33,257 bases of DNA from Circinaria calcarea (lineage: Eukaryota): positions 1-33,257 of the forward strand of contig JAVECS010000036.1 of the NCBI GenBank assembly GCA_051942165.1. Direction: 5' to 3'. Numbering within the stretch: position 1 is the stretch's first letter; each line of letters opens with the position of its first letter. Below the pieces are notes generated by a model that saw only the letters and a list, made by a program, of their open reading frames with translations, made no database searches and had not been told where the DNA came from. A program made the translations under genes and the position numbers. Shown piece by piece: positions 1,294 through 33,257 of this stretch.

Positions 1294-3357
1294 ATGAAAA
1301 TAGAGGAAGTCGTTGTCTCGGGCAATTTCGAGTTACAAAATGCTGAAGGCCATGGGCTTGAGTCGCAGAGAATTGAGCATAAAGACAATATCCACCTGAC
1401 ACAAATCGGGAGAAGACCGGTGCTTAAGGTTTGGACAGACCCCGTTATCTAGCTCTAATAGAAGCTGCATGGGCGTGTTCATATGACTGACTAGAGTGAA
1501 GCGGAACTTTGGCTGGATGTCCATTCTGGCCTTTAGTTGCATCATATTGGCTACGTGGGTAGAGGCTCTCTTGTATGACACAGAATATATCCATTACAGC
1601 TTAATACCGCTGACTTGGCTCAGAGTCCTAGGTGCTGGCTTCGTGAAGTAAATCACCAAGAAGCAATTACTATCTGGTCCTGATTATATCTCTAGCGGCG
1701 GACCAGCTGGCTTGATCTACAGCTTTTTGATAGTATGGGTTGGCAGTCTTTACAAGTCTAGGTGAGCTGGCTTCCATGTAAGTCGATGCCCTAGATATTT
1801 CGATGAAGGGGAAAGTGAGAAGTACTATTAGGGCACCGACTTCCGGAGGTCAGTATCATTGGGTATCAATGCTGGCACCCAAGTCTTGCCACAAACTGTG
1901 TAGCTATATAACAGGCACGTTATCTTGGACCTCCAAATCTTCATTCCCATACCTAATCTAGTCAATTAGGATGGCTTACAGTTGTTGGTTGGCAAGTCAA
2001 CGTCACCTTGACATCCTACACCACTGGTACGGTTCTGCAAGGCTTGATTGAAATGATCTACCAAGATTATAGCCCGCGATCCTGGCAAGGCACATTGCTT
2101 TTCTACGGGGTTTTGTCCCTTTGCATATTTGTGAATACAGTTGTTGGCACGACTCTTCCAAAGGTCGAACTCGCGCTGTTGATACTTTACCTCCTCGGCT
2201 TCTTTTGCTGCTTGGTTCCTTTGGTCTACCTGGCACCTCACAGTAACGCTCACTACGTATTCACGACTTTTCTCAACAATGGTGGTTGGAGTTCCAAAGG
2301 ATTGTCTTTCTTTCTAGGTTTGTCGACCAACGCTTTTACGTACCTCGGTATGACATTTCTCTCATCTAATGACGTGGGCTTCATACTAATCATTTTTTCA
2401 GGTGCTGATGCCGTTTACCACGTATGAAGAATCTGGTTAGGTCACCGTTGCCCAAGCCGCTAACACTACCCCAGATGAGCGAAGAGATACAGAATGCCGC
2501 CGTTGTGGTGCCATGGGCAATTATTATGAGCATGCTACTGAACGGTGTTGTGGGCTTTGCAATGTCTATTGCTATTCTTTTCTGCATTGGTGATCCGGAT
2601 GCAATCTTTACTACAAGCTTCAGGTATCCTTTTATGGAGATTTTCTTACAGGCTACAAACTCCGTCGCGGGTAGCGCAATCATGATATCGACTGTTATTA
2701 CAGCGTGTTTAGGTCTTTCTATCGGATGCATGGCCGCTGCTTCTCGAATGCTGTGGGCCTTTGCTCGTGACCGCGGTGTTCCCGGATGGCGATATATTCG
2801 TAAGGTAAGGCTTCCCTAACCTTGTTAAATCAGGCATGATTCACAGGACGTTTTAGATCAATAAGAAAAGCTCGATACCGACTATATCTATCCTCATCAC
2901 CACTGCGTTCTCTGTTTTAATCGGCTTAATCAGTATTGGTTCTACTATGGCGTTTGAGGCCTTTTCGTTCGTGACTATCGGAAGCTTCTATCTTTCCTAC
3001 CTTTTAGCTTGTGCCTTACTCCTCTGGAGGCGCTGTAATGGCTCTATCAAGACGCTGGCAGAGATTCCGCCATCCGTCTACAGACCAAACACGAATCTGC
3101 CTGGAAGCGCTGGAAACCTGGTCTGGGGACCGTGGAGGATAGAAGGATGGCTTGGCACCGCTATCAACGCTTTTGCCTGCTTATACCTTCTTGTGATGCT
3201 GGTTTTCATATTTTGGCCATTTGTGACACCTGTCACGTTGTCAACTATGAACTACAGCAGTCTGGTGATAGCGTCTATAGCGGTGTTCAGTGCGGCGTAT
3301 TATGTTTTCTGGGCGCACAGGACATACAAAGGACCAATCGTAGATTTGAATGCCTAA
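1294..3357 (+). pseudogene. APC-superfamily ACT-type (choline/GABA, Hnm1/Uga4-like) amino-acid permease with one frameshift; pseudogene or sequence error
   Basis: Exons 1294-1428, 1502-1572, 1624-1647, 1696-1777, 1832-1914, 1970-2347, 2402-2421, 2475-2804, 2857-3357. Motifs: RNFGWMSIL, NGGPAGLIY, GELASMAPTSGGQYHWV, GADAVYHMSEEIQNA, SRMLWAFARDRGVP, GPW, MNYSS. Exon 4 shifts frame at ~1745 (TGA at 1763-1765 in the incoming frame). Intron 1915-1969 is GC-AG. Confidence 0.8.
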
Positions 3358-3764
3358 AAACTCTTTGGTAGCCCCTATATAGCTGAAGCAGGAGGGAGAT
3401 TTTCTGATTTCTGGTGCCGTATATTTCAAGCGCCATGGTCGGTCCTTCACTGGAGAAAGATCCTCGTTTGTAATCACGGATACTTCCTCATCTTGGTTTT
3501 TATGCTTTCTTCAATAAAGAGAAGCAAGCTTAACGCCCGCATTTGAGTCAGTGTAATATCAACCTTGAAATGTCTCAAAAGATACATGGATACGGTATTC
3601 AATGCATTCACAAATTGTTATAGCCGAGCCGAGGCCGTAAACAGGCTCTCACCCTCTCTTCATGAATCATTTTCATCTACAATTACTTGATTCTTGTTCC
3701 GCTGCCCGGTTATTACTGGGAGGCCCACTTCTTCTACTGATAGTACTTGGCCGTATAAGTCAAC

Positions 3765-4913
3765 ATGCCTACGCAATCGTATTTCAGCCAGTTCCCCCCA
3801 TTTCCAGACAATGTGCCAACTGCTCAATTGCCATCTATCACTTACAAAAGGCTTCTGACGGGGGACATGGCTGAATCTACTGCATTGTTTGATGCCTTCA
3901 GAGCCACCGGGTTTTGTCTGCTCGATCTCCGAGGTTGCTCCGAAGGCGAAACCTTTCTAAATGAGGCTGAAAGCGTTTTCCGAGTAAATCAAGACATCCA
4001 CGACTTGGATCTGGAGGAGAAAATGAAATATGCCTTCCAACTACCCAAGTCACTCTTCGGGTATGTCGCTGAGCTTTCGTGTCCAAAACTCTCCGGCTCG
4101 ACCCTCTTTTAGGATTCTAGCGGTCGGCTAACACCGTGTCAACTTTCCAGCTACAAATGCGCTGGCGCCACCAAGATCGAGTCCGGCCGTCCTGACCGCT
4201 TTGAATTTTATAATACAAGCCAAGATGATATGCTTGGCAACGGACCACCACGGGCCAACCCAGCTCCAATCGAGAATAATCGCCAGTTGCTGAAATCTTA
4301 TATAGTCCAGGCTTATTCGGTCGTGAAGGTGATTCTGTCTCATCTTGACTCCCACCTGGACCTCGCACCTGGCACGCTTGCTTCTCTGCAACCGCAGACC
4401 AAAGTCTCCGGCACAGCAGTCCGCCTTCTCCGCTATATGCCACAGCCTGCTGGAGACCGTCGGACCAGCTTGCTCGGCCACACCGACATCGGGTCCGTCA
4501 CCCTCCTCTTCAACGTCCTCGGCGGCTTGCAGATTCTCCCGGCCGGCCTCGACAACGTTGACGGAAATTGGCGTTACGTCAAGCCGCAGCCAGGTTGCGC
4601 GATCCTGAGTCTGGGCGATGCGATGGTCGAGTGGACCGCGGGGATACTACGCAGCAATTTGCATCGCGTCACCTATGCGCCGGGCGAACAGGCGAATACC
4701 CCGCGTTACAGCGTGGCCTATTTGGTCCGGCCGGAAGCGAGCGTGTCAATGAAAAGGCTAGGTGTTGGAGGCGTCATCCCGGCGCTGCAGGAAGGGGAAG
4801 AGGATGTCGATATGGATGTGACAGAATGGGAAAGGCAAAAGGCGACGGCCATTCAAAGCGGAATGGACAATGCGAGAAGCCGAGGCGGGAGAGAGATTGG
4901 CGTACAGAGCTGA
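3765..4913 (+). CDS. 2-oxoglutarate/Fe(II)-dependent dioxygenase (DIOX_N + 2OG-FeII_Oxy, IPNS-like fold)
   Basis: Exons 3765-4060 and 4151-4913 (GTATGT...CCAG intron, GCTAAC branch). HTD...H iron triad (HTDIGS, NLHRV) and RYS 2OG-binding motif. Confidence 0.93.
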
Positions 4914-5819
4914 TGTTCCTCCTCGCAGAGCGAAAGCACGATAGCAATCGGTTTTCCGTAGTAACCGAGATTGCTACTTAGCGGATATATGGTAGAGGCT
5001 TGTGCAGACAGTCGAACGTGATTACTCCTTGGACTTTCACCGATACTTTCTATAACAGGGCATTAGTCGAGTAGCATGTCTTCGAGACATGCACTTATTG
5101 CTAGTTAGGTTCATGACTATCTAAGATACAGCCAAGGAGAAAAGCTTCTCTATGAGATGTAAATGATTGACCTCGTAGACCCGTAGATCACACGGTTCCT
5201 CCACAAGTCTATACCTTTTCAACCATTGTAACCTCAAGGATGTCTCAATGTCAAGTTTCCAACGGCATTGGCGGATTGAAACCCAGCGCTAGCCTCGCCG
5301 CCTAATTTTCACCTCAGCTCCTCCTTAGGTCTCTATCTATAAAAAGCCAAGAATGCATGCATACTGTCACGAGGTCCCCCTACGACTTCCACGGAAGGTC
5401 CGGGTTGGGGGGACACGTATATAAAGGGCAGCACTTTTAGCATAGAGAGAAATCAAGCAACCTTGACTACTTAACACATACTCCATTGCTCGTACGCCAC
5501 CAACTCAGTCTTAAGCAAAACATACTCGATTTCACTGGGAAGATGTGTTGGTGATATTTGTTGCATAAATGTTAAAGCTTCCTTAGGAGCTTTACCGCCC
5601 GTGCGCAAGCAGAGCTTCGATAAGAAAGTTACTCCTCCTGGAGGCGCATCCTCATTATTATCATGCTCGGGGTGATCTCGTCTATCCCTCGGTTTTCTCA
5701 GTTACCCGAGGAAGAGATTCAAAGGAATGAGTATATCCCCTGGCCGAAGAAGCTGAAACGTTTATGTAGTAATGGCGTCTTCCTTGAAGCCGATTTTCGT
5801 TCAATCCCGTCTACTCAAA

Positions 5820-6085
5820 CCTTTTTCCTCTCATCCTTTCCCGCCCGACTGCCCCTTTTCCTATGCGTTCCTTCTTTCTTCCCCTCCTTTTCTCCCCTCC
5901 CCATCAACTCCTTTCACCCTTTCTGGTCTATTCGACTTCCCCAATTTCTCTCTCCTCCATGCCACATTTGCTCCTTCGCTTCTTCCTCCCTGTTTCTACA
6001 TGGTCTCCTTCTTTGTTCCCTCCTTTCCCTACTCCCTCCTTTCCCTATTCCCTCCTTTCCCTCCCCACCCTTCTTCCTCTCCTCG
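5820..6085. repeat. Pyrimidine-rich (C/T) low-complexity tract
   Basis: About 260 nt dominated by CT/CCT/TTC runs on the + strand with no fixed period. It generates the spurious Pro/Ser/Phe-rich and Glu/Gly/Arg-rich ORFs in the track. Confidence 0.8.
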
Positions 6086-6954
6086 ATACCGTAGAGCACT
6101 TCACTTGAACAAAGTCCCAGGCTAAGCTATGTGGTAATCCGAGGCATGAGCAATACGATGGGCTATACGCATTCGATACGAGAGCTAACCATTCCAGAAG
6201 AAGAACATGTGAGCGAAAGCTTTTTCGCCCTACGCCAAGAACGTCGGCGAAGCGGAAGCACTACCATCCCTGGGCGTAAAAGCAAAACAAGTGTGTGCGA
6301 CTGAACCATGGTAGCTTTGAATCGAAATAACATGGAGCTGAACCGTGGCAATAACACTCCAAGGAGGGAAGTAATACAGGTTTGCTGCTGATAGCTAGAA
6401 AGATGTACGGTCATCTACATAAATACCCTTTTTTAGTTCAGGGATGGGAGCATGGCCCCCTTGCAAGGAGGATTGAGAAGACACCAACGGGAGCAGGAGG
6501 GAGCACCAACTTGGCATCCAGTTATACCTACCGCCCTATTACTTACACTTTAGCTAAAATTCCCTAATTCTATAATTCAGAGACTGCTGCCTAAAGCCAA
6601 TAGCTGAAGCCCCTGCACCCCCCAACAAAGGATATTTACGGTTCAGTGATAGGATTAGCTCCAGTCAAAGCAAGGAATCTTGTCATAAAGGGGTCCTGAT
6701 ACGCGTACCGCTGAACGAGTGAACGAAGGGATAAACGAGCCAAACTCCAAGTGACGAGAGATCAGGACTATAGACTAGACTTCTAACAAGAAATGAGGAT
6801 AAGATCTAGCTACGCTGAATTGTACGGCTCTCCTCCTGCATTATCTCTCCCTCTGATCTTTACCCATGTTTACCCTCCTTTCTTATATCGTAATCAAAGT
6901 TCTGATCCCAACATATCTGTCCGACGGCCGCGCTGGAGATATAGGTACGTTTCG

Positions 6955-8866
6955 TTAAGGCGTGGCGGACCTCCGAAAATTCCCAGCCTTCGTCCTATCT
7001 TTCCTTTCCCATGCCCAGATCCCCGCTGTCGTAGCCACCATCAAGACTACCGTAATGACGGCATATAACCCGCCGCCCTTGAGCCCGTGGGTTCCGCCAC
7101 TGTAGCCTTGACTGTCCATCCCTTGACCTGTGAAATTCGTACTGAACAGAGTCTGCCCCTCTCCAAATCAGTCTTTTCAACTAGCCGTACGCAAAAATCT
7201 AAGCGCTCAGGTAAGAAAATGTCGTACCGCAACAAGAGTCCCCGGCAAGTATAGCATCGAAACAATAGCGACGAGCTTCATGGTCCTGGAGTCGGAACGC
7301 GTGCTCGCCGCAAGCTCGAGCATATTCTTAGAGTCATGCTCCGCAGTCGTGGCAATGCGGGCGATGTGGGCACTGGCCTGAGCGAGGGATGCGTGATGCA
7401 TGTAAGAAAGGAGAACGTGAATCTGTTATCACCAGTATTCGTCAGATTATCCTCCATGGGCATTGGGAACCGGCAGGCTTACCAACGTTGATGTGCGCTC
7501 CGCACGGCTGAGCAAGACTTGTACCGAGCGCTGATACCCGTTTACACAAGCTATACTGACCTGTAAGTCTTGGTCTAGCATTCGATAATGGAGGTCAGAG
7601 CCGGGGGCTGAGTCAGAATCGTTCAAGTCCTTGTGCAGGCGCGATAGAGCGTGCTGAATGGAGATGTTGGTGTCGAGAATCAGGCTTGCGTCCTGGAGAT
7701 TTTCAGATAGGTGTAGCAGGCGTTGGACGTCGGAGATTGCGACTTGGAAGTTTGCTTGATTGGAATGGGTAGAGGAGATTTCAAACAGGCGGGCGTTTTG
7801 ACCCTATGTATGGTATAAGAAAATAGGAGTCGTGAGCGGCCACAGGAGCCTACCGTGTTAGCGATTCTCCAATTCAGATGTTTTAGGTATGTAGGCCATT
7901 GGAAGAGAGTTGAGTTGAGTAAGGTGGTATGTAGCGAGAGTGGGGATAAGGAGTGCGATTCGGTAGAGCTTACGATCAATCGTTTGATAGCCGTTGATGG
8001 TTGAATGACAATCCAAGTATTTGACCTGGTCTGAAAATTATGCTTTTGGTAAATACCAATTGTACGGGTAGACCAAGGATGGGTGTCTCTTCCAGTTTCT
8101 TCGATGTATCTTATGTTGTAGAACATTTCTACAACTTATTAGTGACGAGCCGTTGTCCTAAAGTGGAATATTATGACAACCGTAACTGAAGGCGGTCGTT
8201 ATTTTACTATTGAGAGGTTGACTTCTCTTGTAAGATAGATAGTCTCGACATATACCTTCATCCTTCTCATCTATCTTGGAGCCAAAACATTGAACGAATT
8301 CAAGAAATTGAGGATGTACTTCGTGAGCAGATAGGACTTTCATGAGCAAGTCTTCTGTAACCAGGAGTGGGGACCAAGAATGTTTCTGGTACAGAAATCT
8401 GAAACTACATTATTATACAGCAACCGATACCAGGGATTATGCGAATATGAGAGAAATCGGCTGCTCATGATAACAATAGATGCGGCAGAACTCACATGAA
8501 ATGGTCGTCTTGTTCCGATAGGTGATCCTAACCATATAGTTCAGCGAGGCTTCGCGGGCCATATCTTTCAAACTGATCCACCTGAAATTTAGAGTTGAAC
8601 TCAGTTGCATTCGTAATCATATTATAAACCTTCCTTCGGCCATTGTGACTATGCTCTGCCTTCACTTGGGCTCCCGTGAGGTTAGTCGTAGTCATTAGAT
8701 CTAATCGAACTATGTTTTGGCTGAAAAGTCTCGGTCCGTCGGCTGACAGTCGGGCATGGAATCGCTCCAGATCATAGTCTTTGAATAGCGGCAACAGGTT
8801 ACACGGATATGTGTCGCAAACTGCCGCCGAGGTTGGCTTAGATGAGGGACCAGGAGAGGAAGCCAT
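6955..8866 (-). CDS. Fungal CorA-like domain protein (~507 aa) with C-terminal 2-TM hairpin
   Basis: Seven exons: 8866-8582, 8527-8496, 8398-8181, 8128-7854, 7803-7483, 7422-7228, 7152-6955. They sum to 1524 nt with no internal stop, and the ATG context is ACAATGG. Motifs: YPCNL, QKHSWSPLLVT, VHPQFLEFVQCFG, YNIRYIE, PWSTRTIGIYQK, WIVIQP, then a long helical stalk, DSRTMKLVAIVSMLYLPGTLVATLFSTNF (TM1) and LYAVITVVLMVATTAGIWAW (TM2). Confidence 0.8.
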
Positions 8867-9755
8867 TGTTTGTGAGGGAAGTTGCACTCCCGGGGGGGAG
8901 GGGCTCTGGGTTCCATATTATCAGCTGCGGGGGTGGAGAAGGCTGCAAGCCTTGGTGGCGTCTTAGTATATTAAGACACCGAATCCAGTAATTTTCTGCG
9001 AGACTGCATGTGAGGCGTTGGTGCCTAGAGAATACACATAGAGGCGCAAGTACGATCTAGAAGTGACCGGCGATCAGGCTATACAGAATGCATCTAAGGT
9101 TCCGAAAAAGACTCAAGAAAGAAAGCGCAGGGCTACCAATGAAACCCCTCCCCCAATACACATCCTATCTAGAGACCGCTTATTCGTGAATGTCCTTGGG
9201 CATTCGCATCAAAAGTACGGACAACCTATCACACTAATGTATCTGATGGACCTTTGTTAATGGTCATATTCCACCGATGAAATTTCAGTCTGCAAGTACG
9301 CGTTAAGATGTTATTCACTTTTCAAGATAGTGGGATTGTACCGCGTCTAGATTGCGAGGAATCTCAAGAATGTAAGAGTTGTCTTTATGCTAGCCTCAAT
9401 CGATTAGCTGCCGTCTGCCTCGTCCTGCTATAAAGGGCCTGCAGTACCGTTACTTTACAGATTTGTCCAGCGAATAGTGTCTTAAGGAGATTGTATAGCT
9501 TCTGCTTGTCGATATATCGTGCTGAGACGGCCTGAACAACAGACATAACTGTGTTGGGTGCCGTTAAGCGTATAAGGGGTAGTCTTGAGGTGGGAAGGAT
9601 GAAGCCTGAAAGCTAGAAAAGATCCTCGACTGCTCTTGATTTCTTCGATTAGCTCAAGGCTTCACGGTCCCCGCAGTAAGCTGTACCACACAATGCCAAG
9701 CCTCAGCCTTGCCGACATTTGGGACCATTCAAACTGCGTATGAACTCATGGAGCG
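8867..9755. promoter_or_regulatory. Divergent intergenic/promoter region shared by the CorA-like and tandem-kinase genes
   Basis: Head-to-head starts 889 nt apart. TATA-like CTATAAAG at ~9428 and GTATAAG at ~9570 on the + strand. Confidence 0.45.
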
Positions 9756-12658
9756 ATGATGGACCTGAAGAACTTGCTACGTAACTCGCTGGAGCATGTC
9801 CGTAAAGAATCTAAAGCGAAAGACGGCGGAGGGCGGTGGTTTGTCCCTCTAGCAGAGTTACTGACCCAGCTCAAGGACCAGCAGATTGTAGAAAAGGCTG
9901 TGTTACAAGACCTCAAGATCCGTGAGGATGAACGACGAATGATTACGGCACTGGTGCTGGAATCGATTCCAAGAGTGTTCTCTATTTTGTTGTATAATGG
10001 CCACGAGGAACATCTGTCGGGATTTCTCTACCGGAGAAAAAATGACTCTGGGCTACCCTATCTCAAGGACGCTTTGCATTTTTTACCGCCTGACGTCGCT
10101 GCCGACTTCGTTGAGCGCCAATGGGAGTTCATCCCTGTGACTCTCAAGAAAGGTGCATTACGTCTTGATCTTGAGTATCTGCACATCCTTCCTTATTATG
10201 AAGATACGCACATTGGTCAAGGGGGGTTTGGAGAGGTATTCAGGGTTAAGCTTCACGTGAGGTGTCAAGAACTACATGCCCTACAGAATTCAGAGGTACC
10301 GGTTTTGTTTCTGTGGCATAATACCTTCCATACACCCACTTACTGCAACCTTAGTCTATCTACATAGCCCGTAAGCAAATCAAGGCAGACTCGAAATCGA
10401 TCGAAGAAACAGTGGTGCTCGAGCTTCTTCAGAAACTAAGGCATCCTAACATCATCGAGTTCCTGGGATCTTATGTATATCGTGGATTTCATAATCTGCT
10501 TTTCCCGCTTGCTGACATGAACCTGCACGAATTCTTCCGTGCGGATATCCAGCTGCCAGCCGATGTTCTGTTGTCCGAAATACATGGTATTGCCGATGGT
10601 CTAGCCCATATCCATAGATTCATCTTGTTAGACGGAGAGACGGAGCTAAAACATATCGGTTATCACCACGACTTGAGGCCCGCCAACATCTTATTCATCG
10701 GTACGAAGTTCGTAATCACTGATTTTGGCCTTTCAAAGTTGAAACCAGAAGATGAGACATCCAGATCTAGACTACGTGGGGGTCACGATGATTATTTAGG
10801 ACCTGAAGCCTTCGATGAGATCGATTGGTCGAACGGAAAGGTCGGTCGTGCCCTTGACGTTTGGGCCCTGGGTTGCATAATTGCAGAATTTGCCACCTAT
10901 ATGGCGAATCTAAGCGTTGAGGAATTCAAGAGGAGTCGAGAAGAAACTTATAAGCACGAATGGCTATCGATAACAGATTGTGCTTTTCATCTGGGCGGTG
11001 TTCTAAGACCTGCTGTCGATGCTTGGCTATCTCAGCTGGCATCTGGTCACGGCTCTAACCATAGCGAGCTTGTGAAGCTTACTAGGGAGATGCTTAATCC
11101 AATTTGGCGAAGGAGGATTGATATCAGTGTTGCTATACAGCGTTTGTCCATCATCAACTTGCATTCAAAAGCTTCTGCGGTGGACCATTTACTGACCGAA
11201 CATACCCATTGCGAGCCACCTTACAAAAAGACAACGCATGTATTTGTGCTATTAGAGACCATGCGGTTCCATGCTTGGTACGAGGCCTACCAGTCGATGG
11301 ACAGAAATCATATGTTTGAGAATATCCAAGACACCCTTAGCACTCTTGACATGCTACAAAAAGCCATCAAACTACTGACTTGCACCTTCAACGACTCGGT
11401 AGCTTCCATTTATGATTCCCAGCTACCAGATGACATCGATCATATTGGGAAGATTATCGATTCTTTAGGCAAAGACCTTCCAAAACATCAACAGAATGAT
11501 ATGGATAGACTCTGGACCCAGAGCGTAACAGAAATTGAAAGCATGGATGTTTTGCAGCAAATTCGAACCGCCTCTATGACGACCAGATACCGGGCTGTCG
11601 GTATCAAGTCCGCGATGAGATATATGTCTCGCGCCATCTCCAAATCCATTCGCGCAGGCGGTAAGAAGATGCTACTTGATGCTGGAGAGATTGAAGTTGG
11701 AGGTGACGACCAGTTTGATTGTGTTGAATCTGACGAAAAAGAGATAACTCGAAGCAGTGGCTATTGCGACGATTTACGAGTGCTTATCGAATGGGTCAGA
11801 TACGACCCACGGTGGAAGGGAACCCAAGGGGACGAAATGCTTACGCGAATGGAGAACTTGGCCAGATTCCTTAATCCGGACGAGACTGCACGTTCTGGAA
11901 TTCTTAAAGATCGTGTTCTTGAATGCTTGGGCTATTTCCACGATTCGAAGAGGTGGAAGTTTGGATTTGCCTATCGGATACCTTCAGATTCAAATAGCGC
12001 CTCTCTTGATGTTTTCGCCCTCAATAACATCATTCAGGGAGAGCCAAAAAGTGCAACGAGACCTGATCTAGGCGAGGTGTTTAAATTAGGGCAAGTCTTG
12101 GTAGGCACAGTGGATGCGCTTCATGAGGTTGGATGGCTCCACAAGAGCATATCATCCCACAACATCCTAATTCAGGCAGACACCAAGGACGCCGCTTGTA
12201 GAAAGATCGGTTCGGCGGTATTAGCAGGTTTCTCTCAGAGCAGGCCAGAGGTACTTGTGATGACACTCGGCCCAACCCCATCATTCAGACTTTATCACCA
12301 CCCTCGCTATATTGAATCAGGCTCTTCATTCAATAAAACATATGATTTCTTTGGTGTAGGGATCGTCCTACTAGAGTTAGGACTCTGGTGTACTATGGCC
12401 TATTTATTCGAACATGATACTAGCTTGAGCAGTCCAGTCTCTCGCTCGACGGCCGAGGCAAACCAGAAAATACTCTTAGAGAAATATGTCCCTCAGCTCG
12501 GCGAGCGTGTAGGAGCTGTGTACAGAGACGCTGTAGTCTTCTGTCTTGATGCAGAAAGGGAATTTGGAGGCTCATCAAACACCATGGAAGACCGAAGAGC
12601 GGCGCAGAGGGCATTCCGTGAAAATGTAGTCGACCCGCTAGCTAGGTGTTATGCCTGA
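9756..12658 (+). CDS. Tandem kinase-pseudokinase protein (~947 aa)
   Basis: Exons 9756-10295 and 10355-12658 (GTACCG...TTAG intron supplies the IARK beta3 lysine). Domain 1 has GQGGFGEV, ARK, HHDLRPAN, DFG, GPE and DVWALG. Domain 2 is kinase-like, with VLIEW, LECLGYF, LHKSISSHNI, LAGF, YHHPRY and YDFFGVGIVLLELGLW; it lacks the beta3 Lys, the catalytic Asp and the DFG Asp. Confidence 0.88.
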
Positions 12659-12748
12659 AACGTGATCTGTTATTGTTAGCAATAGACAAGAGTGATGGGC
12701 CAAAGAGACTTGTATTACCAAACAATAATGCAGTGAAGCATAGTAGAA

Positions 12749-15700
12749 TTAATCCGTCGTCTCTCTAAAACAACTCATCGAAGCTGCTTTGCGCTGTTCT
12801 CGGACAAAGCGCAATTGAGCTATACGAGGTGCAGTAATCTTTAGGCTTTCGTTCATTCTTTGGGAAGCATCGACCACATCTGTGAACACTTTTTCTGACT
12901 CTTCAAGATTACCTTGGCCATATAGAACTGCGGCAAGATCATTTTTTGCTCTAAGAGTTAGAGGTGCATCGGGCCCTAAAAGTCTTTCTCGAACTTCCAG
13001 CACTACCCTAATATACCGCTCTGCTTCTCCATATTCACCTTGTGCATTTAGTACAGACGCAAGATTCATCATTGAAAGTTGAACAGTCTCGTGCTCTTCG
13101 GGCAGAACTGTACGCCGAATCTCCAGCGCTTCCACCTCTAGCTTTTGTGAATCCTGGTATTGCCCCTGTCTGAAATGCAGGTCTGCATGTCGGACGCAGA
13201 TGGCCGCGCGCCAGAGAAGGGTTTCACGTGAAGTGCCACCGCCAGTTTCTTCAATGACTTTATATAGCTGTTTAGCCTCTTCTAATCTCTCATATCTCCC
13301 ATACGCATAGGCCAAATCTCCCATCGTTTTGATTGTTGAGAGATGGTATGGACCTAGGAATATCTTCTTCAGTTGCAAATTCTCTAAAACCTCCATCTCG
13401 AGCTCTCTTGTCAATTCGCCTTGAAGTCTAGTACCTAACGCGTTACCCCTCATCCTAAGAAATACCGGGTGTTGAGGACCAAACCTATCCAAAGCGAGGT
13501 GAACAGCTTGTTGTTCCATCTTTATTGCTTCCTCATATTTACCTTCTCGCTTACATAGTGTAGCATAGATCGCAATGGCCAGAATCTCCATATCTTTACC
13601 GGTCACAGCGCTTTTTAGCTTTGTGTCAAACAGGTTTCTGGCTTTGGGATAATCCCCTGCCTCAACGTAGACTTTCATAAGAACAACATTTACTCTTAAA
13701 GTCTCGAGATGGTGAGGCCCGACTGAGCTGCTACACCAAGAAAGAGCGTTAGTGCATAGGTTTGCTGCTTGACCAATTTCTCCTTGATCAGCCAGGGTAA
13801 GAGCAAATTCCCGCGCTGCCTCAATAGCAATAACTCCAAGGGGTCCCTTGCCACAACGGGCCTCTAAAATCTGTTTATGGAGCTTGACAGCCTTGTCGAA
13901 GGAGCCTTGTTCGGAGAGAAAGTGTGCCAGGTTGGCCTTTGCTACAGTTACGTACGGATGCTCTCCTCCTAAGCTTAACCTGCAAGATTCTAGCGTGCTC
14001 TCTCTCAAAGCCTCCGCCTGATCTCTCTTGGCGTCGAGAACTAGCCCGGAGGCAATCACTTCGATACACCCTAAGAAGGTTGCCGGGTCCATAGCAGGAG
14101 AGTTCCCTAAAGCTTCCACTACCTCCTTGGCTTCTATTGAAGCATCTCTTACTTCTCCTTGCCTGAGTAGATTACTAGCTAGCAGGTGTTTGGTCCGTGA
14201 GGTAAGTATCGAAGGATCTCGTTTGTCAAGCGGAGCTCTGAATCTTAACACGGTCCGTAGTATCTTTTCTTCCTCTTTGAAATCCTTCTTAGAGCCGCGT
14301 ATGGCTGCAAGGACCTCTTCTGCCTCAAGCTTCATGGGGTCATCTTGTTTGAACTTTCTTTTGAAAACTTTGATGGCGCTACGAGCAGCATCTTCAGCAT
14401 CTTCTAAGCGGCCGAGATCCCGAAACATGTTGGCTTGACACATCCGAGTATACGCTTTGATCACCGGATCTTCTACCCGTGAGGTTTTTGCCGCAACAAG
14501 AGCCATCATCTCATTTGCCTTTTGAAGAAACCCTACGTGTTGAATCGAGGAGGCCCAACATAGCTCGGCTCGAATAGTTAGCGGATGATACTCACCCAAT
14601 GTCTCTGTTCTGGCTTCACTGACTAGCTGCAACAAAGTTGCTGCTTCTTCGTGCCTACCCAGATCTGTAAGTGTTCTGCCCAGATTTTGTGACACCGTGA
14701 TAGCATCGGGGTGGTCTGGGCCTAGAACTTGGACAGTAGATTCTTGAAGTTGGCGTTGCAACGCTTCTGCTTCTATCAGTCGCCCCTGGAGTGCCAAGAT
14801 CATGGCCAAGCCGTTTAGGGATGATAAGGTTAGAGGATGCCGCTCCTGAAGTATTTCTTTGCATGTCGATATCACATCTTGCTGAAGATCTTTAGCTTTC
14901 TGGAACTGAGCTTGAGTTACGTATATCTGGGCGAGATCCGTCTTTAGCTGTAATAGAGACTTATCTGATTCGCCAATGGCTAGCTTTCTTGCATTAATTT
15001 CTAGTAAAAGCGACTCTTCAGCTTCTAGCAACCGCCCTTCCTTCCTGTATTGTTCCGTGCGATCTGTTGTCACAAGAAGACCAAGACTAAGAGAATCTCG
15101 GACCTGCTGAGAAAGATTACCAGTGAGCTGATAGTTATGCTTGATTTGGTCAACCGCTGAGGTAAGGTCTGTTTCTTTCATTGCGGCTCTTTGTAGCCAG
15201 GACTGGGACTGCTGAGGTGTTCTTCGAACCCCGAACCCGATTGTGTGACAAATTGCGAGCTGAAAGGCATAATGTTGTGCACATTTGGAACACGGAGAGC
15301 ATCTAACTTTCGATTCGAGATCCACGGCTATATTACGCCTTAAGATGTAATCTACGTCGTCAAGTTCGCTAAGTGCATTTACGATCTGCAAAGGTCATTT
15401 AATTGAGCCATAAATTTCTAAGGGCAAGAGAAAAGGCCTTCCATACATCGAAAACTTTATGAGAACATGGAATTGTAGGTGTGAAAGATGCTGAGGGAGG
15501 ACATAATGGGGACATTTCTCGCTTCCTAAATGGCACGTGAGTTATTCGTCAATGAAAACAAGCGGGTTTTCTACTCAAATGAATCATTTTTCCCGAGTAG
15601 ACGGACGAGATGCGCCCAGTCCACTTTTCTGCGACCAGGCTCTTGAATCAGGGTATCCGAAATGGCTTCCTCTAAAACCCTTTGATGCAAGGAAGGGATG

Positions 15701-16666
15701 TCGGATGCCATGGCTATACATAGAATCTTCTGCTTTAAAGAATCAATCATTTGGAGATTCTTAAGCTTTTGATTGGTTGACGGCGTGGGATCTATGAAGA
15801 ACATGTCATGACTTTTCAATGCATCCATTGGGATAAGGATATGAGCAGCGAGAAAACCGATCGAGTAGAGATCGGAGAACACGATATCATCAGCTGATAT
15901 ACAAACCTGCTGAGCTGTTTGCAGTTCAGGCGCATTCCATAAAGGAGTCCCTTCGGGGATTCGCACTTGCCCTCGAATTGCGGATGATCCAAAATCTGTG
16001 ACCTGGCAGCAGATCCTTCCTTCCTTATCTTCATTCACCAATATATTGTCTGGCTTAACATCACCATGGCCAATACCTATATTTCAATCAGTGGATGGCC
16101 ATACGGCCTCACTTTATTGCTCACGTACCACAATCGTGGAGTAGCCGAAAAGCCTCCATTACCTGAGAAAAGATTTGGAGCCGAACATCGTCATTGATCG
16201 TTTCTTGCGTGAGAAAGCTTGCAAGGCTTCCTCGGCTTACTTTAGATGTCAAGGTGTACGGCCAGGCCTTTGACCTCCGAGCATCAATATCCCAAACAAT
16301 GCCAATGAGACTGACAATGTGTATGTTTGCTCTAATAGGAGGGTACTGTAATATGCAAAGCTCGGTTGCCAAGCTGTACCAGTCCTGAAAAGAACTGTCG
16401 TCGCATGTACGCCGAGAAGATATTGCATTTTTGAAAATTAGAGTAGTAGCGATGTCGGCTACAGATTGAAATACATCACCCGACCGACCACGGCCGACAA
16501 TACCGAGGCCAGTATGAGGGGATATGGGGAGGAGGGAAACCGAGTGGTGTTGTACGATGCTCAGGAGGTCGATGAGGCTCGTCTGCTCTACATTTTTCTC
16601 TAGGTCAGCCTTATTGGACGGACCTGAAAGATCGACGACTCGTGAGAAGCGGATAGTTCCTGGCAT
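12749..16666 (-). CDS. Ser/Thr kinase - Sel1-like repeat - long TPR array (kinesin-light-chain-like) protein (~1251 aa)
   Basis: Exons 16666-16129, 16076-15575, 15525-15447, 15385-12749 (3756 nt, in frame). Kinase motifs: GRGRSGDV, IFK, HGDVKPDN, DFG, GTPLWNAPE, SDLYSIG. Sel1-like segment AFQLAICHTIGFGV...SWL. About 42-aa repeats with LGxxHPxT (ERHPLT, GPDHPDA, GEYHPLT, GEHPYV, GPHHLET, GPQHPV, GPYHLST, EEHETV, GPDAPLT). Confidence 0.88.
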
Positions 16667-16811
16667 TCTGCGACGGGGAATCAGTCGAGGAGTTGAAGCG
16701 CTGGGAATTGGGAGTGCAAAGAATGCTGCACTTGGGTGCCAAAGACCGTGAAACACTAAAACTTTAAGCGAGAATCATACCACAGTACAGGCCTGGGAGA
16801 AACGCCGACGA

Positions 16812-16820
16812 TTTATATAA
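16812..16820 (-). promoter_or_regulatory. Candidate TATA box of the kinase-TPR gene
   Basis: TTATATAAA on the - strand about 150 nt upstream of ATG 16666. Confidence 0.4.
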
Positions 16821-17478
16821 CCTCTACCCCTTTTACTCGTCGACCTTTTATAACACTTTCTTTGACTAGACTCCCTTATACTCCATTCAAGGAAGCAAAG
16901 TAAGGCCGGACACGGGCCAGCATCAGAAATGCAAAGACTTTGGTAAACTGGAGAAGTGGGCTAGAGATATCTCCCTATGGTACGCGACTATTTCGGTTAC
17001 AGTGATGAGTGGGTCGGAGACTACATTGAACAGACCCTGGTACAGTCAAGGTAATACTCTCGGCGGTAGCTTCTGATTATGCTCTTTCCTCAGATTTGCT
17101 TCTCATCCAACAGTCTATGATATCTCCAAGACACCGGAAGTCAAATTTTATGAGCATATCTTACTGTCTTCTCTTCCATTCACATCGGTCCTTTGTGCTT
17201 TGTTCCTCAGACCTATGAACGGTTTAGTAAGGAGGTTCGACAGAGTTATGATGGTGGATATTCGGTGTTAATAGTCGAGGGTTTTTACAGCGAGAATAGG
17301 GCCGATATTCTCCACATGGATACCTCACATCGTAGACGACTCCTAAATGCATGTTCGACTTGCCCTACTGAAGAAGAAGTATGGGTATCAAAACAAATCA
17401 CCTAACCAAATTGTTAAAACGCCAGCGCTATGCTCTACCTTCCAATGACTTCCGCCCTAACCCTTTGTTAATCTCATT

Positions 17479-19152
17479 CTACTCCTCCGGCTTATAAACA
17501 GCCTCCTTGCACAGCACCACCACCTTCTTAAAGAACCGCCTCCACTCCACCGGATCCCCCTTCACCTTGATGAAATTCACCTCCACCAAGCCCTCATCCA
17601 TGCCTTCCATCCTCTCTACCACAATATCTCCACTAAGAGCACAGTTACGCGCATCCATTGTCTTGACCTTGAGCCACGCCGTAGCATCCTGCCCGTTAAG
17701 CGCTGACGGTGGGAGTATAGGGACCGGCACGCCCAACCGATGTAAACTTTCGGAGATGGTTGGCAGGAGAGCGGGGAAAGCCCACAGGGAGAAGAAGCGG
17801 GTAAGGGAGTGCGAGGGGAGGATGTCGCGGAACTGGCGGGCGAATTGTGTGCGGCTCAAAGGGACGGAAGGAGTGGCGGAGAATTGCGAAAAGGATGGTT
17901 CCTCGGCAAGTCGGTCCTCTAGATTATCGTTGCGGTACAGACCTGTTGGTCTATCCGATGTAGGCTGACTGGCTGACACGCCTCCGGCTATGTAACGAGG
18001 TGGTTTCTCCCAATCGAACATGATGTCGTTGATCGGTGTCTCGGGCTGAGTGGATGCGAATTTGGTATCCCAGTCCGGTTTGTCAACCTCCATAGCATCT
18101 GTCGACCTTTGTGGACGTTGTGAACCCATTGGATCCTGGTTAAAGTCTATCTTCATGTTCTCCAACATCTGAGTAGCTAGGGCAATAGGATTTGTGAGCT
18201 TGCCATTAGCGCCTAGGTACTGGTTTTTCCTGGTAAACCACGGATGCCTCCTCACATCATCGAGGGAAAACCGGGCTTCAGGATTGATCTTCATCATTCC
18301 TCGTAGTAACGAAAGTGTCTCTGTGGGTAGATTTTGCCACAGTTCATCGTCCGGACGCCCGTTTGTCCTTGCATATTCGTTGAACTCATAGCTTCGATCT
18401 AATGGTTCATCCCAGGGTGTATTACCGACCAATAGAACGAAAAGTACCACCCCGCAAGACCATATATCGACAAGATCGCCATAATAGCCTTGACCTGATT
18501 TCTTCCCGGTTAGAGGATCGCAAGTGACGACTTCTGGGGCCGTATATGGAGGACTCCCGCAACTTGTTTTACAGATCTTTCTGACTCCTTGATAGGAGAA
18601 GAGGGTGGCAAGCCCAAAATCGGCAATTTTCAAATTCCCTTCTGCAGACAATAGTATGTTCTCGGGCTTGATATCCCGGTGTCCTACGCCCTTCGAATGC
18701 ATAAATGCTACCGCACTGACGAGCTGTGTAAAGTAAAGATGGGCAATATCTTCCCCAATCCCAACGTCAGATTCAATTTTGTCGAACAGATCCCCCCCTT
18801 CTGCCAACTCCATGGCGATCCATTTCCAAGCTTGATCCTCGCCGGATCGAAAGAACTGTACGATGTTGGGATGCTGATCTAGGTGTTGATGCAAGGTAAT
18901 TTCGAGATTCAGCTGCTTGAGGGTGATTCGACCATGTCGGATTGCGAAGGCTTTGTGGATAAACTTGACGGCAAAGATAGGGGAAGGACTGTCGAGAGGT
19001 CTTGCTTTCTTGATGCTTCTATCCTTAGCATCAAGTTTCTGTGACTTCAAATGTATGACTTACCATGCATAGGCCCCCTGCCCTATCGTCTTTGATATGA
19101 TGTGAAAGGGCAGCTCGCTTGGAAGCGGCGCGAGTTGAGAATGGGCTATCAT
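17479..19152 (-). CDS. chk1: Checkpoint kinase Chk1 (~541 aa)
   Basis: Exon 1 19152-19064 (MIAHSQLAPLPSELPFHIISKTIGQGAYA) and exon 2 19015-17479. Motifs: FAVKFIHK, GGDLFDKIESD, HRDIKPEN, DFGLAT, CGSPPYTAPE, GNTPWDEP, SQ/TQ sites, and a C-terminal KA1-like LTRFFS...KVKGDPVEWRRFFK. Confidence 0.95.
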
Positions 19153-31919: not shown

Positions 31920-32314
31920 AGATGAGAGAGAGGGAATGAATAGAGGTCCATTGTTCGGATTAGCGCATCGCATGGCTGATGGCGTTGCTGATGAGCAGCT
32001 CGTTGAGTTGGGTCAAGGCGAGAAGTCCACTGCCGAGTGGCCTCAAACCCTGTCTTTTGATTCCAAGCGCGCTGTCTTTGTAATATCCATTGGTGAGGTA
32101 TTGGAGTTGCGTATACAACACGAGGGACAAGTGCAGGGCCGCTATTGCATTATGACCTACATTAGTGGTTCGTATAGTGGCGCGATGATGGGATCACATG
32201 TCGTCAATCATACCCCACATTAGCTTTCAGTCTCGTCGCATGTAAACGTACTATGTCCATTTTCAATCTACTAACTGTGTGAGTTTTAATTTAAACTCGC
32301 CGCTCCGGCTTGCA

Positions 32315-33257
32315 ATGTCTTTCCAATCTATACCTGTCCTGGACCTTTCCCAGGCGCATGTTGGAGAAACCAAGTCCGCCTTTCTTGAGGACCTTCGTTA
32401 TGCACTCATGGAAGTCGGCTTCTTTTACATCAGCAACACAGGTATAGAGAATGCACTCACCCAGGACGTTATCACACAAGGAAAGCGGTTCTTCGATCTA
32501 CCTGAGGAGAAGAAGCTAGAAGTACAGATGAAGAATGCGGCAAGCTTTCTAGGTACAAATGCGCGCATCAAGCTCATCCCACGGGACGGCGCTGACCTTC
32601 AGGTTACAACAAACTCGGCAATGAAATCACGCGGCATAAGGTTGATTGGCGTGAACAAATCGACCTTTCAACTCCGCATCCGCTTCCATTGCCCAGCGCC
32701 CCCATCTACCACAACCTCCTCGCCCCCAACCAATGGCCAGATCCAGCTTTCCTTCCCTCATTCCGGCCGGTATATGAAACATACATTCGCCAGATGTCTG
32801 CCCTCTCCACATCATTCACCAGCCTCATTGCCGAAGCACTCGATCTACCAGCAACCGCCTTTGACAGATTCTTCGACGCTGACCAGCAGCACAAGCTCAA
32901 GGTTGTCAAATACCCCGATATAGCAGAGCTGGGGGTGGCGGAGGGCGTAGAATCGCAAGGAGTCGGACCGCACAAGGACAGCATGCTCACGTCCTATCTT
33001 TTGCAAGCGTCGCACCATCACGGTCTTCAGGCACAGAATATGGCAGGCGAGTGGATCGACTGCCCTCCCATTGCGGGAACGCTTGTGGTCGCGATAGGTC
33101 AGGGACTCGAAGCAATCACGCATGGTGTTTGTGCTAGCACCACGCACCGAGTTCTTAGTCCAGGCAGAGGACAAGGGGCGCGGTTCAGTGTGCCCTTCTT
33201 CCAGGGTGTGAGCTACGATGCAACATTTGAGAGCGTAGATGTCCCGGAGCAGATTAG
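32315..33257 (+). CDS. 2OG-Fe(II) dioxygenase, IPNS-like family (3'-truncated by the window)
   Basis: Exon 1 32315-32552 (IPVLDLS, EVGFFYISN, FFDLPEEKK), intron 32553-32602, exon 2 GYNKLGNEIT...DWREQIDL...PNQWP...KLKVVKYP...GVGPHKDS...TTHRV...RFSVPFFQG. Confidence 0.92.

Follow-up and report, generated by a model that had tools for sequence, protein, structure and literature searches.

Three adjacent Circinaria calcarea genes for a kinase-TPR protein, a tandem kinase-pseudokinase and a CorA-fold membrane protein recur together in filamentous ascomycetes

Introduction

Do three tightly packed genes of the fungus Circinaria calcarea form one functional unit, and what might such a unit do? The genes lie within positions 6955-16666 of a 33,257-nucleotide (nt) stretch of contig JAVECS010000036.1 (assembly GCA_051942165.1), which in its full length is called the window here. 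Gene A encodes a CorA-like membrane protein, gene B a protein with a kinase and a pseudokinase in one chain, and gene C a kinase fused to an array of tetratricopeptide repeats (TPR). From the letters of the window alone, the original prediction had proposed a sensor-relay-effector locus, in which TPR sensing acts through the two kinase proteins on the CorA-like protein in non-self recognition or cell death. Comparison with relatives and with metagenome loci gives good support to the view that filamentous ascomycetes have a conserved module of three genes inherited together, of which A, B and C represent one copy. The evidence for the module is given first, followed by the properties of each protein, and these bear on what the module may do.

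Results

The three genes recur together in unrelated settings

Gene models were built by hand from stop-to-stop open reading frames (ORFs), GT..AG introns and homologues, and their splicing is predicted. On these models all three genes carry introns (Table 1) and, as the original prediction had stated, are intact. Its layout is reproduced as well, with A and B head-to-head and B and C tail-to-tail across a gap of exactly 90 nt.

Joint Genome Institute (JGI) metagenome contigs were scanned with the pattern PWS[LIF]R[QNH]x[AG][VI]Y, which was drawn from an alignment of ten A-family proteins only. The pattern matched 381 times; 346 of these matches were confirmed, and the 80 best were retained together with flanks of up to 10 kb. 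Dereplication at ≥90% nt identity of the A gene left 40 groups, and in 20 of them a locus reaches 10 kb or more. B and C were detected by tblastn with parts of both proteins; a full B has matches over both catalytic-loop regions, and a full C has kinase and TPR on one strand. Each group was scored by its best member, some members being without partners.

Full B and C accompany A in 13 of the 20 long groups. Three more have B only and four a partial or other kinase, while none has a weak C-kinase match only and none has nothing. The 20 groups with loci below 10 kb comprise none with full B and C, one with B only, two with a partial or other kinase, one with a weak C-kinase match only and 16 with nothing, the last being expected because their contigs are only 1-8 kb long. 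Where another kinase was scored, Pfam finds Pkinase ORFs adjoining A. Uninterrupted ORFs of the trio loci match Pkinase and DUF7580 (cut-off passed in four of five tested), or Pkinase followed by TPR_10/12.

Beyond the trio, the loci share almost nothing. Among 288 ORFs of at least 90 amino acids (aa) other than A, B and C in the 13 trio loci, no flank family recurs in as many as three loci, and sharing is limited to one pair; a fourth conserved gene was not found in these loci. The flank genes scanned are unrelated core genes, including those for an Mgm1-type dynamin, listerin, an oxysterol-binding protein, FAN1 and Rpb1. Because flanking ORFs are unshared among the 13 loci, the trio is the sole conserved unit and general synteny does not explain it. 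Mobile-element cargo was considered separately and rejected, no common flank ORF such as a recombinase being seen in the 13 loci. The arrangement of the three genes is not fixed, either in order or in strand. Nine of the 13 loci have A and B as divergent neighbours, as in the window; C may be found on the far side of B, on the far side of A or between the two, and some loci have two C-like genes.

These counts bear on two simple explanations. Close relatives are trivially syntenic (78-81% identity; about 93% at the nucleotide level in rock-metagenome run X1), as chance adjacency or left-over synteny of a few close relatives would have it. Such an origin is extremely improbable, however, given that 13 of 20 long, dereplicated, A-selected groups carry B and C among unrelated flanks and that the B family is rare (106 matches in a protein search). 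Homologues thus do recur as neighbours, which the original prediction had proposed to check, and they do so in varied order. Alternatively, common regulation or linkage, for instance through a bidirectional promoter, might be all that keeps the genes together, with no biochemical relay among their products. The start codons of A and B diverge and lie 889 nt apart, and the region between them is a possible shared promoter. Yet the trio persists while order and orientation change, A and B are not divergent neighbours in four of the 13 loci, and fungi seldom keep unrelated genes together over such divergence (branches of about 0.3-1.7 substitutions per site); we therefore consider regulation or linkage alone decidedly unlikely.

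Trees were computed from stitched, approximate sequences of the 13 loci together with the window. Patristic distances correlate between A and B (r 0.87, p 0.0002), between B and C (0.63, p 0.002) and between A and C (0.48, p 0.02), and the gene trees have 3-4 of 11 splits in common, where shuffled labels would give 0.29. In all three trees the window is grouped with locus L042 (support 96, 35 and 85). These results are evidence that A, B and C have largely been inherited or duplicated together.

Closer relatives show the same neighbourhood. The three best matches of B and the three best of C share contig sizes of 15,605, 27,909 and 25,998 nt, and in Varicellaria rhodocarpa B and C bear consecutive locus tags; the third B/C pair is only 43-48% identical to the window genes. 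Two contigs of run X1 together span A-B and B-C in colinear order and differ from the window at 6-7.5% of letters. They diverge from the window on both sides (compared with window 5000-6491 and 16794-19000), and the Chk1 gene of this run lies on a separate contig of similar depth at about 85% identity. The differing flanks could reflect another genomic context or a second organism. Runs X2 and X3 contain next to none of the window stretch.

A 1344-aa public model from a Gallowayella metagenome-assembled genome (MAG), P0278, joins an A-like part (27% identity to A) to a C-like kinase-TPR part (24% to C). A true fusion was rejected: the A-like part breaks off beyond the first transmembrane helix (TM1), and a short stretch without a match separates it from the C-like part, whose alignment to the C orthologue P0395 begins at residue 23. 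The model is most simply read as two neighbour genes merged in annotation, which makes it a further, distant instance of A beside C.

Protein B pairs a complete kinase with a pseudokinase

Protein B is composed of a SAM-like helical N-domain (residues ~1-130), kinase 1, a helical middle region and a C-terminal pseudokinase of the DUF7580 type. Kinase 1 has catalytically complete motifs, with the G-loop GQGGFGEV, the Lys, HHD at 284-286, the Asn and DFG at 303-305. The second kinase fold contains WLHKSISSHN from residue 774, with HKS and not HRD, and GFS and not DFG. Both patterns are kept in the family, as HHDL[KR]PxN with DFG in kinase 1 and as WxH[KR] without the Asp, together with GFxxSRP, in the pseudokinase. 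Because domain 2 has no catalytic Asp and GFS replaces DFG, the kinase-pseudokinase label of the original prediction is correct: one chain holds a complete kinase and a kinase fold without catalytic residues. Kinase 1 is non-RD (HHD, kept in the family), and the solved structures closest to it are those of NEK-type kinases.

On single ORFs of gene B, Pfam gives Pkinase at 4.2e-25 and DUF7580 at 0.0031, below the cut-off that DUF7580 passes in B homologues. The domain is also found fused to a HeLo domain in P0103, with which the B pseudokinase shares 30% identity over 237 aa. The 106 B-family matches are proteins of about 950 aa spread across Pezizomycotina at about 40% identity. Protein B is 81% identical to P0392, and a second B gene is present in a Circinaria calcarea MAG (P0070, 30% identity).

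The first 130 residues of B were modelled with a predicted local distance difference test score (pLDDT) of 90.8. With VIA-align, all six matches at Z ≥5 are SAM domains, the best at Z 7.2 with a root-mean-square deviation of 1.6 Å over 60 of 65 residues, where values below Z 8 can reflect a common arrangement. Foldseek returned no match to the N-domain at E ≤0.001, and Pfam none to B exon 1. Since the Z values may mean a common arrangement and Foldseek was empty, the SAM assignment is a lead only.

B resembles both RIPK3-MLKL and the fungal HeLo-DUF7580 protein P0103 in the pairing of an active kinase with a conserved pseudokinase, and its DUF7580 type is common to P0103. It differs from MLKL-like executioners in that Pfam finds no HeLo domain or four-helix bundle in B, and no HeLo domain in its orthologues; the N-domain is SAM-like, an active kinase shares the chain with the pseudokinase, and the membrane protein has a gene of its own. 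Kinase and pseudokinase are also combined in one chain in plant tandem kinase proteins such as Rpg1, WTK1/Yr15, Sr62 and Lr9. The likeness is one of architecture, with no specific sequence relation seen; kinase 1 has NEK-type affinity, and B is accompanied by a TPR kinase and by a CorA-like protein rather than by a NOD-like receptor (NLR).

B-family C-termini end in a conserved Cys-x-Ala (CYA, CCA, CHA or CFA), located at about 12644-12655 in the window.

Protein C is a kinase-TPR fusion distinct from NLRs

The N-terminal kinase of protein C is non-RD, with HGD at 183-185 and DFG at 207-209, and the motif HGDxKPxN with DFG is kept across family members. Non-RD kinases have been linked to innate immune signalling. 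The kinase is followed by a linker with the Sel1-like motif AFQLAICHTIGFGV and then by a long TPR_10/TPR_12 array; in a relative of C, the linker passes the Pfam Sel1 cut-off. Single ORFs of gene C give TPR_12 at 6.4e-67, TPR_10 at 9.4e-61 and Pkinase at 6.7e-9. The protein is colinear with a 1244-aa annotated orthologue of Varicellaria rhodocarpa at 78% identity, and Pfam assigns the orthologue P0395 to Pkinase and TPR families only.

Neither NACHT nor NB-ARC was found in C and its orthologues, which contain only Pkinase and TPR/Sel1 families, and residues 400-520 leave no room for a nucleotide-binding oligomerization domain (NOD). Protein C is not a member of the fungal NLR/STAND receptors. 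A protein search with the TPR exon yielded only three close relatives (80, 78 and 43% identity). Further matches, at ≤30% identity, are bacterial-type kinase-TPR proteins, CHAT-TPR proteins and the TPRs of fungal NLRs. Bacterial Ser/Thr kinases fused to TPR_10/12, which combine Pkinase and TPR as C does, account for much of what follows the three orthologues.

At the DNA level, the TPR region of the window C gene has no tandem repeats and no 126-bp array. Its sequence indicates an old, diverged array that is not of the hypervariable NLR type. The claim of the original prediction that the three genes form a single unit is strongly supported, by the recurrent trio, its unrelated flanks, the partly congruent trees and the consecutive B and C genes of an annotated relative; the signal order and the non-self or cell-death role that it proposed are hypotheses. 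An array of the kind known from diversifying fungal receptors does occur in the C-like gene of locus L075 (1591-3200), with 12.8 copies of 126 bp at 77% DNA matches and a super-period of 378 bp. The C-like gene of L050 was found to have no internal DNA repeat array.

Protein A has a CorA fold with an altered signature

All six introns of gene A are predicted to be GT..AG and are 50-97 nt long. An in-frame TAG at 8528-8530 falls within the predicted 54-nt intron 8528-8581 (-), which has a weak donor, GTGGAT; retention of this intron would introduce a stop after 112 aa. Removal of the intron brings this stretch to precisely the length of its counterpart in the Lepidopterella homologue P0229, to which protein A is 31.7% identical over 479 aa (E 1.4e-80). 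A public 269-aa protein from a Circinaria calcarea MAG, P0107, is 100% identical to gene A exons. Its model spans window 7207-8126 (-) and lacks the N-terminal third and the second transmembrane helix (TM2), because its start is an internal Met, only three of the seven exons are included and the last intron is read as coding.

The precomputed Pfam assignment of P0107 is PF26616 'CorA-like' (Pfam 38.1), which makes protein A a member of this family, named in databases as 'CorA-like transporter domain-containing protein'. The family is large and ascomycete, with 604 cluster representatives at E ≤0.001 and 113 at ≤1e-10 (HMMER, query P0107), and its named members belong to Dothideomycetes, Sordariomycetes, Leotiomycetes, Eurotiomycetes, Pezizomycetes and Lecanoromycetes. 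PF26616 is present in 60-84% of members of the Atlas clusters nearest to the family member P0238. When a 91-aa exon of gene A served as the query of a protein search, the window's own record was the only match, and Pfam CorA (PF01544) had no match on single exons of gene A. PF01544 matches five of 11 A-family homologues in one scan and three of five in another, of which only P0320 (28.8 bits) passes the cut-off.

The AlphaFold model of P0238 has a mean pLDDT of 65, with most of the core (190-480) above 75. Among the Foldseek rows listed, CorA of T. maritima is the only fold (E 2.1e-9, probability 1.00), with target-normalised template modelling scores of 0.5-0.6 and 73 matches at E ≤0.001. The modelled layout is shared with CorA: an N-terminal alpha/beta domain, a long stalk helix leading into TM1, a short loop and a C-terminal TM2. 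Protein A has the same TM1-loop-TM2 end in its sequence, with TM1 MKLVAIVSMLYLPGTLVA, the loop TLFSTNF and TM2 LYAVITVVLMVATTAGIWAW. On this modelled fold protein A is assigned to the CorA superfamily, which bears out the label it had been given from sequence.

In CorA, Mrs2 and Alr1, selectivity for Mg2+ depends on the Gly-Met-Asn (GMN) signature with which TM1 ends. Protein A resembles CorA, ZntB, Mrs2 and Alr1 in fold, in the conserved Pro of TM1 and in the Asn that follows. It differs in having STN at the GMN position (LFSTNF in the window, FSTGF or FSSNL in homologues and FS[ST]x family-wide), in its fungus-specific N-terminal region, to which Pfam gives the name PF26616 'CorA-like', and in PF01544 matches to homologues that are mostly below cut-off. 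Judged from the model, protein A appears to be a CorA channel fold whose Mg-selectivity motif has been lost.

Near-identical loci differ in partner content

In three metagenome loci (L005, L012 and L013), the downstream DNA is 97-98% identical to that of L008. Where L008 has the 5' part of A and all of B and C, they have at least 9.9 kb of DNA at 31-35% GC (L005 1-9897) without long ORFs. The replaced allele was found in three assemblies and the intact trio in six, and the replacement DNA looks like the product of repeat-induced point mutation in its composition. Over B and A, L077 matches L075 at 88% identity, but it has no C gene, and L040 has TPR-only ORFs where its 91%-identical relative L055 has B. 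The original prediction had proposed a search for presence/absence polymorphism. Near-identical loci do differ by loss of C or of both B and C, a pattern that fits an accessory, conflict-type system and is no proof of one.

In L041, L052, L068 and L074, the neighbour of A is a single Pkinase gene preceded by an ORF of 236-437 aa without a Pfam match, and these loci may be a two-gene variant of the system.

The TPR_10/12 ORFs of L040 lie directly upstream of A, with no kinase detected, and a very regular WD40 ORF (WD40 1.5e-178) lies about 4 kb from A. The ORF coordinates are 10532-12505 (-) and 3063-4879 (-). Here a different partner set accompanies a near-identical A gene.

Partner loss also bears on how the module might be wired. 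The pseudokinase of B could be a sensor or decoy, as in plant tandem kinases, with C or A acting downstream or as a scaffold and C perhaps optional. A and B are the tightest pair by distance correlation and are mostly divergent neighbours, B occurs without C in three long groups, L077 keeps A and B alone, and some loci have two C-like genes, all of which would suit this wiring. It is nevertheless quite unlikely, since enzyme-fused repeat arrays are the usual sensors of clustered fungal systems according to a recent review (PMC12881547), and the fusion of DUF7580 to a HeLo executioner fits a receiver better than a sensor.

A real module might, in turn, be homeostatic, its two kinases tuning a channel of the CorA superfamily, for divalent cations or other ions, to nutrient, osmotic or metal status in a WNK-SPAK- or Hal4/5-like manner, with no non-self or death role. 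B, with motifs intact at about 40% identity across ascomycete classes, would fit such a regulator, and the CorA fold and signature Asn kept in A, the old TPR array of the window and the position of the window trio among core genes point the same way. It accords poorly with the family-wide replacement of GMN, with several distinct trios per metagenome assembly and a second B gene in the Circinaria calcarea MAG, with alleles that have lost C or B and C at near-identical loci, and with contexts that are not syntenic. We regard a purely homeostatic module as unlikely, though a serious contender.

Other genes of the window

Core genes lie to the right of the trio, as had been predicted, and were detected by structure and Pfam matches. 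The kinase has Chk1 as its closest solved relatives (9e-49), the E2 enzyme matches UQ_con at 5.9e-40 and the histidine kinase matches HisKA/HATPase_c. Elsewhere in the window are two 2OG-Fe(II) oxygenase genes near its ends, an amino-acid permease fragment, an open frame without Pfam match and, just downstream of gene A, a low-complexity stretch that is probably non-coding (Table 1).

Table 1. Position and structure of the three genes and of other window features
Feature	Coordinates	Strand	Structure or basis
Gene A, CorA-fold membrane protein, 507 aa	8866 (ATG) to 6955 (stop)	-	7 exons, 6 introns, splice model
Gene A exons	8866-8582, 8527-8496, 8398-8181, 8128-7854, 7803-7483, 7422-7228, 7152-6955	-	splice model
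A/B divergent intergenic region, 889 nt between start codons	8867..9755	.	gene-model coordinates
Gene B, 947 aa	9756 (ATG) to 12658 (stop end)	+	exons 9756-10295, 10355-12658; homologue alignment
Gene B single intron, 59 nt	10296-10354	+	gene model
B/C gap, 90 nt, convergent stop codons	12659..12748	.	gene models
Gene C, 1251 aa	16666 (ATG) to 12749 (stop)	-	exons 16666-16129, 16076-15575, 15525-15447, 15385-12749
Amino-acid permease fragment	2857-3357		
2OG-Fe(II) oxygenase gene	3759-4913	+	DIOX_N + 2OG-FeII_Oxy
CT-rich low-complexity stretch	5624-6125	+	three overlapping open frames
Open frame, 534 aa	29821-31425	+	no Pfam match
2OG-Fe(II) oxygenase gene	32246-33255	+	DIOX_N + 2OG-FeII_Oxy

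Discussion

The reading that we favour, to which we give a little less than an even chance, is that of the trio as an accessory module whose phospho-signalling gates a CorA-derived channel, with a role in stress, non-self recognition or death. In this mechanism, the TPR array of C would restrain the C kinase until a cue or ligand is met, making C the sensing or initiating part. C would then act on the DUF7580 pseudokinase of B as a 'receiver', B would be released or oligomerised through its SAM-like N-domain and its kinase switched on. B would in turn phosphorylate or bind the cytoplasmic funnel of a pentameric A, and A might open to ion flux or membrane permeabilisation. The direction of signalling, from C through B to A, is purely inferred. 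C is placed as sensor because its repeats are joined to an enzymatic head, an architecture also found in fungal protease-TPR and NLR sensors. An accessory role in stress, damage or non-self responses, possibly in regulated cell death, is likelier than housekeeping ion uptake because the genes are multi-copy, lie in unrelated core-gene contexts and have loss alleles. A complex prediction for the C kinase (P0395 1-400) with the B pseudokinase (P0392 620-946) scored 0.00; it was made without alignments or controls and counts neither way.

Several observations weigh against this mechanism. The surveyed loci represent one A subfamily, that of the PWS[LIF]R pattern, and its best 80 matches. Congruence of the trees is partial, with conflicts that are in some cases strongly supported (for example L002 and L038), and even congruence is no proof of co-evolution because kin share history. 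Internal DNA repeat conservation was seen in one of the three arrays tested, that of L075 and not those of the window or L050. A has alternative partners, namely a single kinase in four groups and a TPR-only gene in L040. The conservation of B across classes would fit a physiological regulator too, and ordinary cation conduction by A is possible because the Asn of GMN is kept in its STN.

A stronger form of the proposal is that the trio is a widespread, NLR-independent pathway of regulated cell death or immunity in filamentous ascomycetes, with a TPR-guarded kinase that would detect a non-self or damage cue, an MLKL-type receiver on a SAM-oligomerising tandem kinase and a CorA-derived pore. 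We hold this to be improbable, if well worth keeping in mind. A precedent for a CorA-fold membrane protein as signalling output comes from the CorA effectors of type III CRISPR systems. Those systems are bacterial and activated by nucleotides, and no CRISPR or nucleotide-signal parts are present here, so the likeness is an analogy only.

Closer in kind are the clustered death systems of fungi. A 2025 review of fungal regulated cell death describes HELL domains joined to kinase or pseudokinase domains as well as death clusters of two or three genes (PMC12881547), and the passages of it covered here mention no CorA-like protein. Clusters described there, such as NWD2/HET-S, PNT1/HELLP(/SBP) and gasdermin with a TPR/WD40/ANK protease, resemble the trio in having two to three genes and variable copy number, in placing a repeat protein with an enzymatic or signalling head beside a membrane-acting protein and in their TPR_10/12-type arrays (PMC12881547). 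The trio differs in that it has no NOD domain, amyloid motif or protease and would signal by two kinases and a pseudokinase. Its membrane part has a CorA fold and is neither HeLo nor gasdermin, and any part of the trio in cell death is putative. In a study of Morchella importuna, a polymorphic CorA-like (PF01544) gene is one of two unvalidated candidates for vegetative incompatibility (PMC8940278), and it stands as a published, unvalidated lead. Full-text literature searches found no description of the trio, and 'DUF7580' occurred in 0 papers, in line with the original prediction, which knew of no described fungal system of this composition. The trio is a case of the clustered sensor-executioner theme of fungi, in a composition not described in the literature searched.

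Conserved multi-gene clusters beyond metabolism and mating are rare in fungi, and the few known signalling clusters, NLR with HeLo and gasdermin with protease, have shaped ideas of fungal immunity. If the stronger form were true, the trio would be a third class of fungal executioner beside HeLo/HELL and gasdermin, and would include the first eukaryotic CorA-fold protein to act as a death or defence effector. That A, B and C have been inherited together over such deep divergence leads one to expect that protein phosphorylation is tied directly, in function, to a CorA-fold membrane protein, and the literature searched offered no example of such a tie. The trio also offers a candidate upstream kinase logic for MLKL-like HeLo-DUF7580 proteins, and it gives a testable function to the uncharacterised PF26616 'CorA-like' family, to DUF7580 and to fungal kinase-TPR fusions.

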